This document shows, in pieces, positions 14,370-25,026 of a stretch of 64,000 nucleotides of DNA. This DNA comes from Planctomycetota bacterium. Lineage in GTDB: Bacteria > Planctomycetota > GCA-002687715 > CAIWVZ01. How positions within the stretch are numbered: position 1 is the first letter of the stretch; the number at the start of each line of letters is the position of its first letter. The notes below the pieces were generated by a model. The model saw only the letters and a list, made by a program, of their open reading frames with translations. It was not told the DNA's origin and made no database searches. Position numbers and translations under genes: made by a program. The stretch is from contig JBGANV010000006.1 in NCBI GenBank assembly GCA_044222185.1, positions 320,001 through 384,000 on the forward strand, in the 5' to 3' direction.

Positions 14370-17300
14370 CTACGGCGTCAGGCGGCGGGCGGGCCGGATT
14401 CCGGTGTAATCGTCGCGCGCGCGAGAGTAGACGAACCGGAACACCTGGGCGTCGAGATCTTCGGGCGATTGGGCGGCCGTGCCTCCGGCGACCTCGCACG
14501 TGTGGACGATACGCGAGCGGCGCTCCGTCGAGCGACCCGTCCGGTACTCGGGCTCCAAGACGGTGTCGGAACACCACTCCTGCACGTTCCCGTAGACGTC
14601 GTGGAGGCCGAATGGGTTCGCTCCCTTCTCCCCGACGAAGCGAGGCGACGTCCGAGGTTGTGGCAGCGCGTCGAAGTTGAGATTCGCGAAGCCGGCGAGC
14701 GAGCGTGCCGCTTTGCCGCACCAGAAGCGGGCTGCCCCTCCGCCTTGCGCCGCATAGGTCCACTCCACATCCGTCGGCAGCCGCAGCCAGGCGCCCGTCT
14801 CACGGAGCAATGCCGACGCCTCGAACCAGTCGAGTGCGCCGAGCGGGTGGAGCGCGAGGTCTTCCGGCATGTCGAGCTCCGACCGACCGGTGAGCCGTGC
14901 CCATTGGGCCTCCGTCATCTCGTACTTCGAGATGAAGAATGGTTCGATCGGCGCGGGCGTGCGGGGGACGGTGCCCGTACCCGGTGCGAATGGGGTTCGG
15001 GTCCCCGGAAGGAGCACGAACACCAGGCTCGAGTTCCGAGTGAGTTGGAGGTGGCCATCGACTCGCTGCGGCGGGAGGCCGCTGGGCGGGTGACCGAATT
15101 CCAACAGGCGCGAGTCCGGGTCGCGCCCCAGCGGGACCAGGTCCAGTTGCGGTGTGAGCCGGGGCATGCCGGCGTAGAGGGGCTCCGCCTCGACGGCTTG
15201 GGTAGCCTGAGCCCACGCGCGGCGTGCGGCGTCGGTCTCCGTTGCTTCGGCGGCGAGTTCGATCCTCCTCCGCAGGCGTTCGAGGTCGGTGACGAGCCGA
15301 TCGAGGACCTCGTATCTCCGACCTTCGATTGCATGGCTGATACTCCAGCCGTTCCACGTCCGGATCCGCTCCGCGAGGTCCAGGAGCTCCGCTTCGCGCC
15401 TCGGAAGAAGACGAGCCTCCTCGCCCAAGGTCCAGCAGGCCGTTTCGCGCATGATGTTCTGCGCGTTGTCCTTGATGTTCCGGACCCAATGGTCGGCCTC
15501 GTCACGGCCCGCTCCGGTGCTCGACTCGAGGTTCCGCTCGGCCGCGGCCAGGGCCTCGAGAGCGTTCTGGCGGGCCTCTTCGAAGTGGGCGACGCGACAG
15601 AGCGCCCACGCAAGCGTGTCGAGCGTCCTGAGGCGAGGGACGTCGCCGGTCGCGGTGGCTGCGGCGCGCCGTGCGATGCAGAGCGCGCGGACTTCCTGTC
15701 CTTGGAACAGCCGTCGCTTGTTCGGTGCGATCAGGTCGAACGCCTTCAGTTGGAGGTCTACGGGGTCGCTTGGCAGCGTCGCGAACGAAATCTCTGCCTC
15801 GACGACGCTCTCGGGCGGAAAGCGGCTTGGCTCGAGCATGCGACGCCGCCATTCGAGGTCGGCTCGTTTCGTCTCGTACATGCGCCGGAGATCGAGGAGC
15901 TCTTCGTCGTGTTCGCGTTCGGCGTCTGGGATCGGCACGGCCCGTCCGCGGAGCTCGGACAACTCGCTGCGACAGTCCTCGAGGCCCGGTCCCGACTCCT
16001 CCTCCGCGCCGGACGCCCTCGTTCCCCGAACGAACCCGCGCGCGCGACGGAACCACCACGCCGTCGTCGTCTCGTCACTCCGCCTGGCGGGGGTGAGGTC
16101 GCTGCTCTCCGCGAGGAACCGCGCCAGATCCCGGGAGGTCACGAACGGCTGATTCCTCCGCGTCTCCTGGGCCGTGCTCCACAGGGTGAGACTGCCGGTC
16201 GCGACGATCGCGATGGACGCTGCCAGCGACGCGGCGAAGGCCTTGTTGCGCCGGACCCATTTTCGTGTCTCGGCCCAACCACCGGTTTCGTACGCCCTGA
16301 CGACCCGTCGCTCGACGTACCTCCTGAGGTCGTCCGCCAGATCCTGCATGTCCGCGTAGCGATCGGACGCTTTTCGCGCCATCGCCTTCTCACAGATCGC
16401 GACGAGCTCCGGCGCCGCATCCGGTGCAACCGCGTCGAGCCGCGGCGGCGGCGCTCGCTTCACGCGTTCCAGGACTGTTCCTTCGTCGTTCGAGCCTGGA
16501 GTCGCACCGGACGGCGATTTGAACGGCGGGTGACCGCTCAGCAGGTGGTAGAGCATGGCCCCGACCGAGTAGACGTCCGACTGAGGTCCGAGACGTTCGA
16601 TCTCGCCACGAGCTTGTTCTGGCGACATGTACGCGGCCGTGCCGAGAACGTCGCCATCCATGGTGACGAGAGGCGATTCCATTCCGGACTGCCGATCGGC
16701 CACGCGCTCGGTCGCGACGAGGCCTTCGAGGATCGGTGCATCCTTGCAGATGCGGATGTCGTGGACGTCCGGTTCGCCGATCACGCGCGCGAGTCCCCAA
16801 TCGACGACGTACACTTGGCCGAATCTCCCCACCATGACGTTGGACGGCTTCAGGTCTCGATGGAGGACCTGCTTCGCGTGGGCGTAGCTCATCGCATCGC
16901 ACACCTTGAGCATGACGTTCAGGGCGCGCACCTGGCTCCACTCCGAGGCGCCGTTCTGGACGTGGTCGAAGACCGTCAGCAGGTCCTCTCCGTCGATGAG
17001 GGGCATGGTGTAGTAGACGGCGCCGTCATCATCGACACCGATCTCGTGAAGTGGGACGATCCCCGGGTGGTCGAGCTGTGCCGTGATCTGGGCTTCCTCG
17101 ACGAACCGCCCCAGGTTGATCGACTCCACCGCGAGGTCGCCGACGGACGTGCCCCCGCGGTCGCCGTGCATGACCTTCATGGCGAGGTCGCGCCGCAGCT
17201 CGGGATCGTGCACCTTGAGAACGACGCCCATGCCGCCCCGCCCGAGCTCGCCGTCGCGGCGGAATCGCGCGCCGCGGGAATCGTTGCTGCGAAGCCGTGC

Positions 17301-17534
17301 GACCAGCTCGAACGCACGCGAGATCGCCGTCTCTCCGCCGTCCTGCGGAGGGCCGGGGAGGAGGCGGTCCAGCACGTCGAAATTTGCGACCAGCGATCGG
17401 ATCTCGTTCGCCAGCTCGGGATTGGCGTTGCAGATCGACTCCAGATCCACGGCTTCGCCGGCGTCGCGTCGCCGGAGGTAATCGTCCACGAGCCTCTCGG
17501 CAGCCGAGAGCTGGATCGATTCAGGATCGTCCAT
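14370..17534 (-). CDS. Ser/Thr protein kinase with TM helix and C-terminal FGE-sulfatase (SUMF1) domain
   Basis: LGRGGMGVV, LHRDLKPSNV, DWGLAR, GTAAYMSPEQ; C-terminal FFISKYEMT, LRLPTDVEW, ANPFGLHDVYGNVQEWC. Confidence 0.92.
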   Translation of the reverse strand: MDDPESIQLSAAERLVDDYLRRRDAGEAVDLESICNANPELANEIRSLVANFDVLDRLLPGPPQDGGETAISRAFELVARLRSNDSRGARFRRDGELGRGGMGVVLKVHDPELRRDLAMKVMHGDRGGTSVGDLAVESINLGRFVEEAQITAQLDHPGIVPLHEIGVDDDGAVYYTMPLIDGEDLLTVFDHVQNGASEWSQVRALNVMLKVCDAMSYAHAKQVLHRDLKPSNVMVGRFGQVYVVDWGLARVIGEPDVHDIRICKDAPILEGLVATERVADRQSGMESPLVTMDGDVLGTAAYMSPEQARGEIERLGPQSDVYSVGAMLYHLLSGHPPFKSPSGATPGSNDEGTVLERVKRAPPPRLDAVAPDAAPELVAICEKAMARKASDRYADMQDLADDLRRYVERRVVRAYETGGWAETRKWVRRNKAFAASLAASIAIVATGSLTLWSTAQETRRNQPFVTSRDLARFLAESSDLTPARRSDETTTAWWFRRARGFVRGTRASGAEEESGPGLEDCRSELSELRGRAVPIPDAEREHDEELLDLRRMYETKRADLEWRRRMLEPSRFPPESVVEAEISFATLPSDPVDLQLKAFDLIAPNKRRLFQGQEVRALCIARRAAATATGDVPRLRTLDTLAWALCRVAHFEEARQNALEALAAAERNLESSTGAGRDEADHWVRNIKDNAQNIMRETACWTLGEEARLLPRREAELLDLAERIRTWNGWSISHAIEGRRYEVLDRLVTDLERLRRRIELAAEATETDAARRAWAQATQAVEAEPLYAGMPRLTPQLDLVPLGRDPDSRLLEFGHPPSGLPPQRVDGHLQLTRNSSLVFVLLPGTRTPFAPGTGTVPRTPAPIEPFFISKYEMTEAQWARLTGRSELDMPEDLALHPLGALDWFEASALLRETGAWLRLPTDVEWTYAAQGGGAARFWCGKAARSLAGFANLNFDALPQPRTSPRFVGEKGANPFGLHDVYGNVQEWCSDTVLEPEYRTGRSTERRSRIVHTCEVAGGTAAQSPEDLDAQVFRFVYSRARDDYTGIRPARRLTP

Positions 17535-17727
17535 GAGAGCCTCCGCTGGGATGGAACGGTGGTGAAGGACACCGCCGAGCGACGCCGCGACGATCATCGA
17601 GAGCGATGCCGCGGTCGTCAAGGAGCCCGCGGACGACGGGCGAGCGGGGCTCGCGCAAGATGCCTGCGCCGGTGCCTCGCGCGGGGTAGACTGTGCCCGC
17701 ACCATCACGCTGCACGGGGGATCCAGG

Positions 17728-18357
17728 ATGGACACGCCGAGCGAAGGCGCGCGGTCGGAACGCGAACCACAGGACACGTACACGCTCATCGATCGGTTTC
17801 GCGGCGGTGACCGGGATGCGGGCGAAACCCTGATGACCCGCTACAGGCCTCGGATCCATGGACTCGTCGAGCGGAGTCTCGGCGCGAAGCTCAGGGCGCG
17901 CGATGCGGTCTCGGATGTGGTCCAGCTCGTCTGCCTCCGGGTCTTGAAGGGACTCGAGACGTTCGATCGGCGCGGCGATGCGCGGTTCATGGATCTGGTC
18001 ACGAAGATGACCCGGTACGAGATCGCGAATCGAGCCCGCGACGGCCGGGCCGCGAAGCGCAACAGGCCCACCGTTCCACTGGAGGGCGGAGGCGACGATT
18101 CCCAGGCCGGCGTCGAGCTGGCAGACGATGCGTCGGGCGTCGTGACCAACGCCGAGCGCCGCGAGCTGTACGCGATTCTGCTGGAGAGACTGTCGGACCT
18201 GCCTGCGATTTACCGCGAGGTCATCGTGAGGAGGAAGATTCTGGGCGCGTCCTGGCGTGCCATCTCCGAGCGTCTCGGCCGTTCGCCGGCAGCCTGCGAG
18301 GAGCTGTGCCGGCGCGCCGTGCTGCGAGCGGCGAGCCTCGTGCCGGAACTGGGTTGA
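17728..18357 (+). CDS. ECF-type RNA polymerase sigma-70 factor
   Basis: Region 2 (GDRDAGETLMTRYR...SDVVQ) and region 4 (LPAIYREVIVRRKILGASWRAISERLGRS); divergent from the kinase. Confidence 0.88.
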   Translation: MDTPSEGARSEREPQDTYTLIDRFRGGDRDAGETLMTRYRPRIHGLVERSLGAKLRARDAVSDVVQLVCLRVLKGLETFDRRGDARFMDLVTKMTRYEIANRARDGRAAKRNRPTVPLEGGGDDSQAGVELADDASGVVTNAERRELYAILLERLSDLPAIYREVIVRRKILGASWRAISERLGRSPAACEELCRRAVLRAASLVPELG

Positions 18358-21457: not shown

Positions 21458-21638
21458 CGCCCGATTGGTCCAGAACACGTCGCGCGCGAGATGAACCGAG
21501 CACCCAGGCTCGAAACTTCATTCCGGGAAGAAGCTGGGCGTGCACGACGTCTCACCTCACGTCAGGACTGACGCCTGGGTCCGGTCATTCCACCCCGGTC
21601 GCGCCAGTTTTCACCGGACTCGAACGGAGCACCGACCG

Positions 21639-21713
21639 ATGATTCGCCGCAACCTCTTGATGATCGTCGCGCTTGCCCTCTTCGTGCTCGTCCTGGTCCG
21701 CGTCTCGGCGTAG
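21639..21713 (+). CDS. Putative 24-aa single-TM small protein (MIRRNLLMIVALALFVLVLVRVSA)
   Basis: ATG preceded by GGAG at 21626-21629; basic-hydrophobic-basic pattern; absent from the ORF track. Confidence 0.5.
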   Translation: MIRRNLLMIVALALFVLVLVRVSA

Positions 21714-21830
21714 ACGGGCGTGGGCCGGGTGATCGTCCGGCGCTGGCAGCCCTGACCCGTTGGCCGACCCGAGGAGCTTGATACCTTCGAGGCCCCGCAC
21801 CGCGCGCCGGTGCATCCTCGAGACAGGCTC

Positions 21831-22382
21831 ATGCAAATCAACGCACTCGACCTCCGCAAAGGCAACCTCGTCCGCTACGAGGGAAACATCTGCGAGGTGG
21901 TCTATTGGAACATCCTGAAGAACGACCGACGCCAGTTCGTCCAGATGAGGATCAAGAACCTCACCACCGGTCGCATCACTGAGCTCAAGGAACATGGCGA
22001 TTCGAAGTTCGAGAACCTCGAGAACGAGGTCGTCGAGCTCTCGCACTCGTACCGGGACGGCAACGACGACGTCTTCTACACGCCGGAAGGCGAGGAACAC
22101 CGTTGCTCGCACGACGTCGCCGCCGAGACGCTCAAGTGGAAGTCGGACGCCTACAAGGGCTTCGTCGTCGAAGGCCGACTCGTCACCGTGTCGCCACCGC
22201 AGACCGTCGTCGCCGTCGTGACGGATACGGCACCGCCGATGAAGGGCCAGAATCAGTCGGGCCTGAAGGACGCCATGCTGGACAACGGCATCAAGGTCCG
22301 CGTCGGCCTGCTGACCCAGGTCGGTGACAAGGTCCGCCTCGACCCGGACACGCTCGAGTTCAAGGAGCGCGTCACGTCGTGA
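21831..22382 (+). CDS. efp: Elongation factor P-like protein (atypical paralogue)
   Basis: 183 aa; DLRKG, FVQMRIKNLTTG, VTDTAPPMKG, KDAMLDNGIKVRV and GDKVRLD...EFKER match the three EF-P domains. Confidence 0.85.
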   Translation: MQINALDLRKGNLVRYEGNICEVVYWNILKNDRRQFVQMRIKNLTTGRITELKEHGDSKFENLENEVVELSHSYRDGNDDVFYTPEGEEHRCSHDVAAETLKWKSDAYKGFVVEGRLVTVSPPQTVVAVVTDTAPPMKGQNQSGLKDAMLDNGIKVRVGLLTQVGDKVRLDPDTLEFKERVTS

Positions 22383-22433: not shown

Positions 22434-22844
22434 CTACACCGCCCCCCGCGAGCCCGTGAGCTCGCGGACGTCGTCCACGTAGGACGACTCCAGGATGGCG
22501 GACGCGCGGTGGGCGAGCGCCAGGCGGAACAGGCGCGCCTTCAACGATCGCGGCGACTCCCGCTGCTGGTTCACCGCTTCCAGGTGTTGGACGAAGTCGT
22601 CGCGCTCCGACGTCGTCACCTGATTTCGGAGCACGTCGAACGCCTGCATGGCTGCCGTCACCACCGTCGCCGGAGTCGACGTCCGGTCGAGAGCGGTGTC
22701 GATCAGATTCAGCACATGAACTGGCGGGCGACCTTCTTCGATCGCCGAGCGGATGTCCTGGTAGAGCGCCGGGGAACGTTCGAGGATGAGGAGGCGCTGA
22801 CGTTCCCAAACGCGCCTGATTTCATGCTGATCACGAGCTTCCAC
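22434..22844 (-). CDS. YbgA/DUF1722-like small protein
   Basis: WERQRLLILERSPALYQDIR and ERDDFVQHLE...LFRLALAHRASAILESSY resemble DUF1722; GGGAG RBS before GTG 22844. Confidence 0.55.
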   Translation of the reverse strand: MEARDQHEIRRVWERQRLLILERSPALYQDIRSAIEEGRPPVHVLNLIDTALDRTSTPATVVTAAMQAFDVLRNQVTTSERDDFVQHLEAVNQQRESPRSLKARLFRLALAHRASAILESSYVDDVRELTGSRGAV

Positions 22845-23082
22845 GCACCGGACTCCCTGCGGCTGCGTCGCTCGTGGCCAGATTGGCAGGTGGGCCCGAG
22901 GGATCGCAACGACGCGACGTCGATTCTTCTCGCTCCGACGACGTCGCCCGTTTCGCGACGCCCATCGTAGATGTGGCGCGCATCGTCTCAAGTCGGCGCG
23001 GCCCAGGTCAAGTCGTCCACGGAGCGCCGCCCCGGCCCGCGATCGTCTGGCATAATCCGCCGCTCACTTCGCGGAGATTCCT

Positions 23083-25026
23083 CTGAGCCGAACGCGCTTC
23101 GAAGTTCTTGCCCGCATCGACGCGATCTGCGAGGTGTACGAGGCCGACCTTCGACGAGGCGCCGCACCGTCGATCGAAGCGCTCGCGCGCGGCTGGGAGG
23201 GTCGCGACCGGGATCTCCTCCTTCGGCACCTGCTCGAACTCGAAGCCGACTACCGGGGTCAGAAGGATCCGCCGACGCCGACGCCCTCCGCGGCCGCAGC
23301 GACGATCGGCATCACCTTGCCCAGCGGCGACCGGTTCCACGTCGTGCGCGAGATCGGGCGCGGCGGCATGGGCGTCGTCTATGAAGCGTTCGACCGGGCG
23401 TTCGGGCGCCGCGTCGCGCTCAAGCTCCTGCCGGGATCGATGCAGGCCGACGCCGCGCACGTCGCCCGTTTCCGCCGCGAGGCTCGGGCCGCAGCCCGCC
23501 TGCACCACGAGAACATCGTCCCGGTTTTCGAGGTGGGGGCTGGCGATACGGGCACGGCGTCCTGGTACAGCATGCTGTTGGTGGACGGCCGTTCGCTTGA
23601 TCAGGTCCTCGCGCTGACGGGCCGTGCCAACACCGCCGCGCCCGACAGTGTGGCGGGGAGCGGAGAAGGATCGGACCCCGATGCGCCCCACCGCGTCGAC
23701 CGCGACTTCTGCGAGTCGTGGCACCGCCACCGTCCACGGTATTTCATCAACGTCGCGCGGATCGGAGTCCAGGTCGCGGATGCCCTCGCCTACGCTCACA
23801 CCGAGGGCGTGGTCCACCGAGACGTGAAGCCGCCGAACCTGCTGCTCGACGGCAGCGGGACCGTCTGGGTGACCGATTTCGGCCTGGCGAAAACGGAGGT
23901 GACGGACATCACGAAGGCGGGAGACGTCCTCGGCACCCTGCGCTACATGGCTCCCGAACGCTTCGCGGGCCGATCGGACGCCCGCGCCGACATCTATGGC
24001 CTCGGCATCGTCCTCTTCGAGCTCCTGACGCTGCAACGCGCATTCGGGGACGGCGACTCGGCCACGGTCATCGGCCGGATCCAGCAGGCTGCGGTGCCGC
24101 GGCCGACGGACGTGGATCCGTCGATCCCGCGGGACCTGGCCCGCGTCGTCGAGAAGGCCATCGCGCGCGATCCGGACCAGCGCTACTCGACGGCCGGCGA
24201 GTTGGGCGCTGACCTCCGACGCTTCCTCGACGGGCGGCCCGTCACCGCTGAGCGTGTGTCGCCCCTGCGGGCGTTCGGCCTCTGGGCGCGTCGCCATGGG
24301 TCGCTCGCTTTCGGGATCGGCGTCGCTTCGCTCGTGGTGGTCGCGTTGCTGGCGGGCACCATCGGCGTGGCATCGTCGTTCCGGCGCGAACGGGACCGCG
24401 AGAAAGCCCTCCGTCAGGAGTCGGAGCGCACGCGCATCGCGCTGTCGAGTGCGATGTACGCCCGCGAGGTCTTCCTGGCTGGAATCGACGTGCGGGAGGT
24501 GGGCGGGCGCGCGCGCATGCGCTCCAAACTGGATGCAGCCGCAGCGCTGGCGGCATCCGCCGGGTTGCCCCGCGGGTGGGAGTGGTTCTGGCTCGATGGC
24601 GTGGCGTGGGGCGAACGGCTGACGAGGGACGAGCCCGCGACGCGCCCACCCCTGCCGGTGCTTCCGATCCGCCCAGCCGCGGCGGACGCAGCCGTCGCGA
24701 GCCCGGACGGCCGTCTCGAGGCCGTCATCGCCCCCGACGATTCGATCCACCTCGTCGATCGCAGCACGCACGCAACCCTTCGCGTGTTGTCGGGGCACAC
24801 CCGCATGGTTCGCTGCGTCGCCTGGCATCCCCGAGAAGCGCGACTGGCGTCGATCGGAGACGACGCATTCGTGCGCCTCTGGGATTCGGAGTCGGGCGCC
24901 GAGTTGCTCGCGCTGGTGCTTCCGGCATCTGGCGTCTCCGTCGCGTGGAGCGAGGACGGCCGCGAACTCACCGCGCGCTGCGACGACGGCGCTCTCCGGC
25001 ACTGGCGCGCACCGCCGCCGAAATGA
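23083..25026 (+). CDS. Ser/Thr protein kinase with TM helix and short WD40 tail
   Basis: IGRGGMGVVY, VHRDVKPPN, DFGLAK, GTLRYMAPE; WD40 LSGHTRMVRCVAW...VRLWD. Start uncertain (CTG 23083 or GTG 23134). Confidence 0.9.
   Translation: MSRTRFEVLARIDAICEVYEADLRRGAAPSIEALARGWEGRDRDLLLRHLLELEADYRGQKDPPTPTPSAAAATIGITLPSGDRFHVVREIGRGGMGVVYEAFDRAFGRRVALKLLPGSMQADAAHVARFRREARAAARLHHENIVPVFEVGAGDTGTASWYSMLLVDGRSLDQVLALTGRANTAAPDSVAGSGEGSDPDAPHRVDRDFCESWHRHRPRYFINVARIGVQVADALAYAHTEGVVHRDVKPPNLLLDGSGTVWVTDFGLAKTEVTDITKAGDVLGTLRYMAPERFAGRSDARADIYGLGIVLFELLTLQRAFGDGDSATVIGRIQQAAVPRPTDVDPSIPRDLARVVEKAIARDPDQRYSTAGELGADLRRFLDGRPVTAERVSPLRAFGLWARRHGSLAFGIGVASLVVVALLAGTIGVASSFRRERDREKALRQESERTRIALSSAMYAREVFLAGIDVREVGGRARMRSKLDAAAALAASAGLPRGWEWFWLDGVAWGERLTRDEPATRPPLPVLPIRPAAADAAVASPDGRLEAVIAPDDSIHLVDRSTHATLRVLSGHTRMVRCVAWHPREARLASIGDDAFVRLWDSESGAELLALVLPASGVSVAWSEDGRELTARCDDGALRHWRAPPPK

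Follow-up and report, generated by a model that had tools for sequence, protein, structure and literature searches.

A third, apparently undescribed lineage of EF-P paralogues in uncultured Planctomycetota, with a conserved Asp-Arg-Arg hairpin tip

Background

Five types of EF-P, distinguished by loop and modification, and a single paralogue, EfpL, are recognised by Brewer & Wagner 2024 and by two 2026 reviews; the comparisons below also draw on Sieber 2024 (PMC11611912) and Volkwein 2019 (PMC6544042). In these other EF-Ps the omega loop often carries a modified lysine or arginine. A gene in a 64,000-nucleotide stretch of planctomycete DNA, here called the window, raises the question of whether a further kind of EF-P exists and how it might act on the ribosome. 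The initial annotation of this gene had described an EF-P paralogue in which both functional loops are rewritten, and had proposed a distinct subfamily that may be independent of modification or may rescue stalls other than those at polyproline.

The gene and its protein product

The gene lies at 21831..22382 on the forward strand, stop codon included, and is an intact open reading frame that runs from an ATG at 21831 to a TGA at 22380-22382, i.e. 183 codons and the stop, encoding a protein of 183 residues (P0001) that was identified by its Pfam domains and AF2 fold. GC content by codon position (0.65 / 0.36 / 0.86) is coding-like, and the surrounding DNA is 68% GC. The start codon assigned initially is correct, as the same methionine (Met-Gln-x-Asn-Ala-Leu-Asp) opens the homologues; a GTG at 21810 was considered as an alternative start and rejected, as the relatives do not use it. 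The sequence strings quoted from the protein are likewise all present, namely I28-LKNDRRQFV-Q38 (21912-21944), K138-GQNQS-G144 (22242-22262) and F177..R180.

Pfam searches recovered the KOW-like N-terminal domain (EFP_N, PF08207; 33.3 bits, gathering score 23) and the C-terminal OB domain (Elong-fact-P_C, PF09285; 40.6 bits, gathering score 25), and gave no match at E <= 0.01 to the middle OB domain, PF01132. All six NCBIfam models for EF-P and EfpL match the protein, all of them far under their cut-offs: 95.8 bits against 185.8 for the canonical EF-P equivalog TIGR00038, 98.7 against 161 for NF001810, and, for the EfpL models, 49.5 against 264.05 (TIGR02178) and 57.2 against 216 (NF003392). 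Its best solved relatives are EF-Ps (E 5e-16 to 1e-10), and EfpL (8S8U) follows at 3e-8. An AF2 model built from a 31-sequence alignment (pLDDT 90, pTM 0.65) can be superposed on full-length EF-P structures with 182-187 aligned columns (TM 0.76-0.82). Foldseek, run against the PDB, places only EF-Ps at the top, e.g. 1ueb of T. thermophilus (E 4.6e-15) and the ribosome-bound E. coli EF-P 6enj_w (TMq 0.82); EfpL aligns at TM 0.61. The model thus indicates that the three-domain EF-P fold is kept.

Conservation and the domain-I hairpin

The search for homologues, based on word indexing, yielded 247 clusters at E <= 1e-5. Across 31 clusters of 58-80% identity there are 38 invariant columns, which include W26, I28, N31, D32, R33 and R34, and among the best 120 clusters W26, D32, R33 and R34 each occur in 119, the lone miss being an N-truncated fragment. 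We refer to the family as the DRR type. A scan of one genome per GTDB species provided 125 relatives, of which 80 loci were kept; the pattern W-x3-[KR][NS]DRR is present in 80/80 of these species-level loci, a count that is partly built in, because of the two patterns used for searching one already included part of the motif; the WKSDRR variants entered through the other. The family is bounded by a sharp gap in an exhaustive profile-free search, in which full-length members score at least 200 bits, whereas no other full-length protein exceeds 81 bits (30% identity). The proposal that the KNDRR loop should be checked for conservation is therefore answered by a loop that is invariant across homologue clusters and GTDB loci; it is not the product of drift, and the DRR type is strongly conserved.

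The segment W26-N-I-L-K-N-D-R-R34 (21906..21932, forward strand), delimited by conservation, DSSP and alignment, comprises the last part of strand beta3 together with the tip of the hairpin, and the loop ILKNDRRQFVQ has neither proline nor glycine. R33 is aligned with the tip residue of other EF-Ps (K34 in E. coli, R32 in T. thermophilus), and N31 and D32 stand at the positions aligned with P32 and G33 of E. coli EF-P. The canonical arrangement of a seven-residue beta3-omega-beta4 loop with proline at -2 and glycine at -1 is thus replaced by K-N-D-R-R. DSSP applied to the AF2 model gives strands at 19-31 and 34-43, with only D32 and R33 in the turn, and the main EF-P of the same genome, modelled as a control (20 sequences, pLDDT 87), has strands at 17-27 and 35-42 and the textbook seven-residue loop A28-P-G-N-W-R-A34. 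The geometry of the hairpin is as predicted by the model, in which residues 31-40 have a mean pLDDT of 86.

These features modify the initial description in two respects. The loop had been called one residue shorter; HMMER and MAFFT do have to open a gap of one residue, within the loop or next to it, to align it with canonical EF-P, but the model predicts that a longer, tightly turned beta-ladder stands in for the flexible omega loop. Of the view that both functional loops are rewritten, the part concerning domain III holds in so far as the Asp-Thr pair is absent, but the part concerning domain I was overstated, given the invariant arginine at the aligned tip: judging from the alignment, the basic tip is kept, not lost. 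The missing proline would fit an Arg-type factor, as Arg-type EF-Ps select against proline at -2 (Volkwein 2019); for aspartate at -1, no precedent was found in the literature consulted.

The domain-III loop and the C-terminal motif

In domain III, loop I reads K138-G-Q-N-Q-S-G-L-K-D-A148 (22242..22274, forward strand) in place of the canonical KGDTxxGGxKPA. It lacks the Asp-Thr pair, and has Q140 and N141 where E. coli EF-P has D145 and T146, the residues that touch the first two bases of the E-site codon (Sieber 2024). The change to KGQNQSG had been noted at the outset; the string is present and the Asp-Thr pair is gone, but QNQ itself is private to the window protein (1/120 of the best clusters), and the consensus of these 120 clusters is the glycine-rich [KR]G(G)GGSG[LT]K[DE]A. 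K146 and A148 are found in all 120 and G144 in 117.

The C-terminal segment E176-F-K-E-R180 (22356..22370, forward strand) is aligned with E-Y183-V-S-R186 of E. coli EF-P, so that F177 corresponds to Y183 and R180 to R186. We take Y183 and R186 to be contact residues, of which the literature searched gave no description. The replacement of Y..R by F..R, likewise noted initially, is real in the window protein but not family-wide: among the best 120 clusters position 177 is phenylalanine in 89 and tyrosine in 28, with E176 in 120 and R180 in 118, for a consensus of E[FY][KR]ER.

Phyletic distribution

The distribution of the DRR type was determined in 301 genomes sampled evenly across the Planctomycetota, among them the genome of the window (7.08 Mb in 16 contigs, 93.8% complete). 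At a threshold of at least 200 bits it is present in 17 of the 301, the window genome included, and the next best match falls to 75.7 bits. The carriers belong to five families, here numbered f1 (3 of 4 sampled genomes), f2 (3 of 5), f8 (4 of 7), f46 (3 of 4) and f57 (4 of 8), and the frame is intact, with no internal stops, in 17/17. The DRR type was seen solely in uncultured Planctomycetota, and the 80 loci kept from the GTDB scan all derive from metagenome-assembled genomes; since the family occurs in such genomes only, surveys of RefSeq complete genomes like that of Sieber 2024 would miss it. Metagenomes of sludge, wastewater and bioreactors, from 13 studies in all, contain DNA nearly identical to that of the window.

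The search for a second, canonical efp that had been suggested was successful in the window genome, where the gene lies at C1:600749-601300 (L001 1498-2061) and its product scores 206.6 bits on TIGR00038 (cut-off 185.8). An EF-P over this cut-off is in fact co-resident in all 17 carriers, and the DRR-type copies of the other 16 score 87.6-106.9 bits on the canonical EF-P model, under its cut-off. In 16 of the 17 the partner has the loop PGN[WL]R, with asparagine at the aligned tip, and scores 192.6-231.1 bits on TIGR00038; the main EF-P of the remaining genome (G157) is of the Lys type, KPGKGQ. Two carriers, G157 (L013, L059, L076) and G187 (L019, L061, L075), have three genes of the EF-P family, i.e. 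the main EF-P, an EfpL-like protein and the DRR type. In the carriers the DRR type is always found beside a main EF-P and never in its place, as would be expected of an accessory factor.

The PGN[WL]R loop also occurs in 11 of 13 Planctomycetota EF-Ps from other genomes; it is the loop of most of the EF-Ps examined here from this phylum (L001, L021-L033 and L060-L074). Asn-tip proteins make up 2.23% of EF-Ps (Volkwein 2019), and Brewer & Wagner 2024 list a Planctomycetota family of Lys/Asn EF-Ps, group the EF-Ps of unknown modification from this phylum in three sequence families, and report a pair of EfpL with an unknown-type EF-P in 8 Planctomycetota genomes as well as one unique EF-P in Tuwongella.

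Evolutionary relationships and the EfpL-like proteins

Two trees were inferred, one of 162 rows and a more careful one of 65 rows under LG+C20. The DRR type forms a clade of its own in both (support 100, and 100/99), on a long stem of ~1.04 changes per site in the 65-row tree. E. coli EfpL and the EfpL-like proteins of Planctomycetota, with loops such as SSPQARGG, form a second clade (99, and 100/98), and the DRR type falls outside it. Together with scores below the cut-offs of all six models, an invariant loop and the presence of a second EF-P, this bears out the proposal of a distinct EF-P subfamily, and in these free trees, which include both EF-P and EfpL, it does not fall in an already described EF-P clade. 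We conclude that the DRR type is a real and apparently undescribed lineage of EF-P paralogues, probably the third after the main EF-P and EfpL; an EF-P family with a DRR loop was not found in the literature consulted, although the supplement of Brewer & Wagner 2024 could conceivably hold a member.

As to its origin, the sole starred neighbour of the DRR clade is P0138, a single long-branch Arg-tip EF-P with the loop KMGRQS (97/96), and this grouping, which joins two branches of more than one change per site, may reflect long-branch attraction. AU tests reject neither monophyly of the DRR type with EfpL (p-AU 0.333, delta lnL 11.65) nor its union with the Asn-type EF-Ps native to the phylum (p 0.268). 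Within the DRR clade the branching order (f1 with f2; f46; f8; f57) broadly mirrors that of the co-resident main EF-Ps, although support is weak, or resolution lacking, at most of its inner forks, and one f8 copy, that of G240, stands apart from the others of f8. This parallel points to old vertical inheritance with losses, as far as it can be read from the trees.

P0138 is one of a set of metagenomic EF-P representatives (P0138-P0271) that show many loop types, e.g. K[MT]GRG, TAQRR, [QK][ML]ARG and AG[VT]AK.. with an extra residue, for which no description was found in the literature consulted. Going by these sequences, loop diversity in EF-Ps appears much wider than the five named types.

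The outcome of the AU test makes it necessary to consider whether the DRR type arose from the EfpL (YeiP) lineage, as a much-diverged branch of it, and is functionally just another EfpL. Besides that test, its distribution offers some evidence for this. A profile of 14 EfpL-like proteins (A2) finds this type in 40 of the 301 genomes at 205.8 bits or more, the next match being at 187.9; in the order to which the window genome belongs, families f1 and f2 carry the DRR type and family f3 an EfpL-like gene in 6/6 genomes. The 28 sampled genomes of the five carrier families comprise 15 with the DRR type only, 7 with the EfpL-like gene only, 2 with both and 4 with neither, and the 2 with both, against ~5.5 expected, are a weak hint that one gene substitutes for the other, of little weight as relatives are not independent. 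Phylum-wide, however, the overlap is that of chance: given 17 and 40 carriers among the 301 genomes, 2.3 with both genes are expected and 2 are observed, G157 and G187, which keep both. The free trees place the DRR type outside the well-supported EfpL clade, its scores on the EfpL models are under those on the EF-P models, and the AU test equally allows it to group with the native EF-Ps of the Asn type. The loop also lacks the hallmarks of EfpL, with K30 at -3, no proline three residues before the arginine, no two-residue extension, and a turn that is shorter instead of longer. An origin within EfpL together with an EfpL-like function is thus unlikely, if still worth weighing.

Genomic context, modification enzymes and expression

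Contextual analysis was directed at the genes around the DRR type. Gene clustering of 12 loci of up to 16 kb recovered no conserved flanking family beyond close kin, and in the 2-kb flanks of the 80 loci the largest family is present in 9. A flanking cluster of 32 loci was discarded, as it is merely the antisense shadow of the DRR gene itself. Within 2 kb of the DRR gene, a putative FKBP/SlyD-like peptidyl-prolyl isomerase gene, judged by eye only, occurs in 7 of the 80 loci (L146 1313-1894 and six others) and a putative ApaG-like gene, likewise judged by eye, in 8 (L181 1631-2545 and seven others); both adjacencies are probably lineage-specific synteny. The neighbours in the window are unrelated to the gene: a 418-aa open reading frame without Pfam family upstream, a convergent DUF1722 open reading frame, and a Ser/Thr kinase with WD40 repeats. 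The convergent frame (22434-22991, reverse strand) matches DUF1722 at 28.1 bits, and its true start probably lies downstream of the listed TTG, since the opening ~60 residues are rich in arginine and do not resemble coding sequence. On either side of the region is a large Ser/Thr protein kinase (14370-17789 on the reverse and 23134-25026 on the forward strand); one of the two has a fused FGE-sulfatase domain, the other fused WD40 repeats.

Enzymes known to modify EF-P were sought in the window genome as a whole. The best match to EpmA (TIGR00462) reaches 200.8 bits, under the cut-off of 286.9, and lies inside a 780-aa open frame; with no EpmA over the cut-off, and a tip that is arginine and not lysine, the protein does not conform to the EpmAB type. 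EarP (PF10093) has no match in this genome, a search to which 14 control genomes were likewise silent. A deoxyhypusine-synthase-like gene (PF01916, 177 bits) is present at C1:525981-526883, ~75 kb away from the main efp. Immediately before this efp is a radical-SAM variant (L001 106-1041; NF045502, 141.7 bits, cut-off 125), followed by a 132-aa open reading frame without family. The radical-SAM protein was considered as an EF-P modifier and rejected: neither gene stands beside efp in the other 59 loci scanned, and the adjacency is probably coincidental.

The suggestion that the DRR type may be modification-independent would fit the lack of a conserved neighbour, of an EpmA over the cut-off and of an EarP match (with silent controls). 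The opposite reading is that an enzyme encoded at another locus modifies the tip arginine or a residue next to it, and that the DRR type is modification-dependent like most EF-Ps. Most characterised EF-Ps do need modification (Volkwein 2019), an invariant D32-R33-R34 would be in keeping with recognition of this site by an enzyme, and such an enzyme may be encoded away from the DRR gene; the window genome does have the deoxyhypusine-synthase-like gene. Yet epmB and earP typically adjoin efp (Brewer & Wagner 2024), and none of the 80 loci reveals such a conserved neighbour. Moreover, bacteria in which deoxyhypusine-synthase-like genes are found have loops with a Lys or Asn tip (Volkwein 2019), and the enzyme has been linked to such tips with proline at -2, a description that fits the main EF-P of this genome and not the DRR type. 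Dependence on modification hence strikes us as rather improbable.

Around the gene, an Rfam scan identified no RNA family, and no promoter-like site was found. A 151-nt contig from a sludge metatranscriptome (run X15) matches 21777..21927 on the forward strand with 100% identity and covers the 5' leader and codons 1-32. It is a single contig of depth 2, RNA libraries can contain DNA, and it is the only one that touches the open reading frame among four metatranscriptome runs, the uncovered remainder proving nothing; it is weak evidence that the DRR gene is transcribed. The upstream region 21500-21770 is covered in 4/4 sludge metatranscriptome runs (3 studies) by contigs that are 100% identical, except for a single differing letter in one. 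This region includes a 23-codon hydrophobic open reading frame (21642-21713; MIRRNLLMIVALALFVLVLVRVSA) and has no Rfam match.

A proposed mechanism

We consider that the DRR type is probably an accessory EF-P-like E-site factor, with an unmodified Arg-tip hairpin and relaxed contacts to the E-site codon, which works beside a main Asn-type EF-P; what we infer here is ribosome binding, the absence of modification and a changed target spectrum. Since it retains a tRNA-like shape, a basic tip and the E[FY][KR]ER motif at its C terminus, the L-shaped three-domain tRNA-mimic most likely docks between the ribosomal P and E sites, adjacent to the tRNA in the P site. A rigid beta-hairpin ending in the Asp32-Arg33 turn, followed by Arg34, would take the place of the flexible seven-residue beta3-omega-beta4 loop and would face the CCA end of the peptidyl-tRNA with guanidinium groups that are unmodified, Asp32 possibly bracing the turn. 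In domain III the glycine-rich loop probably leaves only backbone contacts to the E-site codon; the loss of the Asp-Thr pair in favour of glycines leads us to predict weaker or different codon discrimination, and hence a codon or motif preference that would differ from that of EF-P. The DRR type would then operate alongside the main PGN[WL]R EF-P. With its arginine tip it might arrive at an outcome analogous to that of EfpL, whose Arg33 is unmodified (Sieber 2024), through the opposite change in loop length. A bolder form of this proposal, in which the DRR type is a third mechanistically distinct E-site factor whose rigid unmodified hairpin, with a glycine-rich loop that does away with discrimination of the E-site codon, rescues stalls, possibly non-proline ones, on which the Asn-tipped main EF-P fails, is a tentative suggestion that we regard as possible but doubtful.

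The same loop residues could be read as signs that the protein has left polyproline rescue and is either a passive or regulatory occupant of the E site, e.g. in slow growth or stress, or a binder of some other RNA or protein. Substitutions of P32 and G33 abolish the activity of E. coli EF-P (P32S/G and G33A/S; Volkwein 2019), and the loop may not act like EF-P at all, because the DRR type has asparagine and aspartate at just these positions. The ribosome- and mRNA-facing loops are both replaced, OB domain II goes undetected by Pfam, and the very long stem, which would also fit a change of function, is followed by tight conservation, a signature of neofunctionalisation. Against this stand the tRNA-like shape, the basic tip and the E[FY][KR]ER motif, whose retention is hard to explain without the P/E-site pocket of the ribosome, and a departure from rescue appears improbable to us. 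That the gene is a decaying duplicate, a product of drift or a pseudogene, is scarcely conceivable in spite of its low scores on curated models, given the open frame of all 17 carriers, the 247 homologue clusters, the invariant loop residues and an inner topology that mirrors the main EF-P and so speaks for long vertical inheritance.

Comparison with known EF-P systems

Among the closest known counterparts of the DRR type is EfpL/YeiP (E. coli b2171, 8S8U; TIGR02178, NF003392). Both are second members that always accompany a main EF-P, have an arginine at the hairpin tip, the three-domain fold and no adjacent modification gene, and have lost the GDT of domain III, for which E. coli EfpL reads KGASAS. 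They differ in the hairpin itself: EfpL extends the canonical seven-residue loop by two residues and has a strictly conserved proline three before the arginine (Sieber 2024), whereas the DRR type has a two-residue turn without proline or glycine. In the trees the DRR type also branches outside EfpL, although the AU test allows the two to be sisters, and they coexist in 2 genomes.

With canonical EF-P (TIGR00038; 6ENJ chain w, 1UEB) the DRR type has ~24-31% identity and shares the fold (TM 0.76-0.82), the EFP_N and C-terminal domains, an N-terminal D-x-[RK]-x-G, the basic tip and the C-terminal aromatic..Arg. It departs from it in the absence of P32/G33, of the seven-residue omega loop and of D145/T146, in K[DE]A for KPA, in the score of 95.8 against a cut-off of 185.8, in an OB domain II that PF01132 does not see, and in never being the sole or main copy. 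The Asn-tip EF-Ps (PGN[WL]R) share genomes and phylum with the DRR type, the AU test permits a common clade (p 0.268), and several of them read K[DE]A after the domain-III loop as it does; unlike it, they are over the TIGR00038 cut-off and keep Pro-Gly, the seven-residue loop and G[DN]T in domain III. The EarP-type Arg EF-Ps (P. aeruginosa 3OYY, 6J7M) likewise have an arginine tip and no proline at -2, but each is the main EF-P of its host and not accessory, the loop, KSGRNA, differs in sequence, and EarP was not found in the window genome (nor in the 14 control genomes).

Taken together, the DRR family adds a second, independent-looking paralogue to the EF-Ps, in a phylum whose main EF-P is itself of the Asn-tip type of unknown modification. 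If the proposed mechanism is right, there would be two ways of reaching the peptidyl-transferase centre without modification, a longer loop in EfpL and a tight turn on longer strands in the DRR type, and the family would offer a natural test of whether the reading of the E-site codon by domain III, as practised by canonical EF-P, is dispensable.
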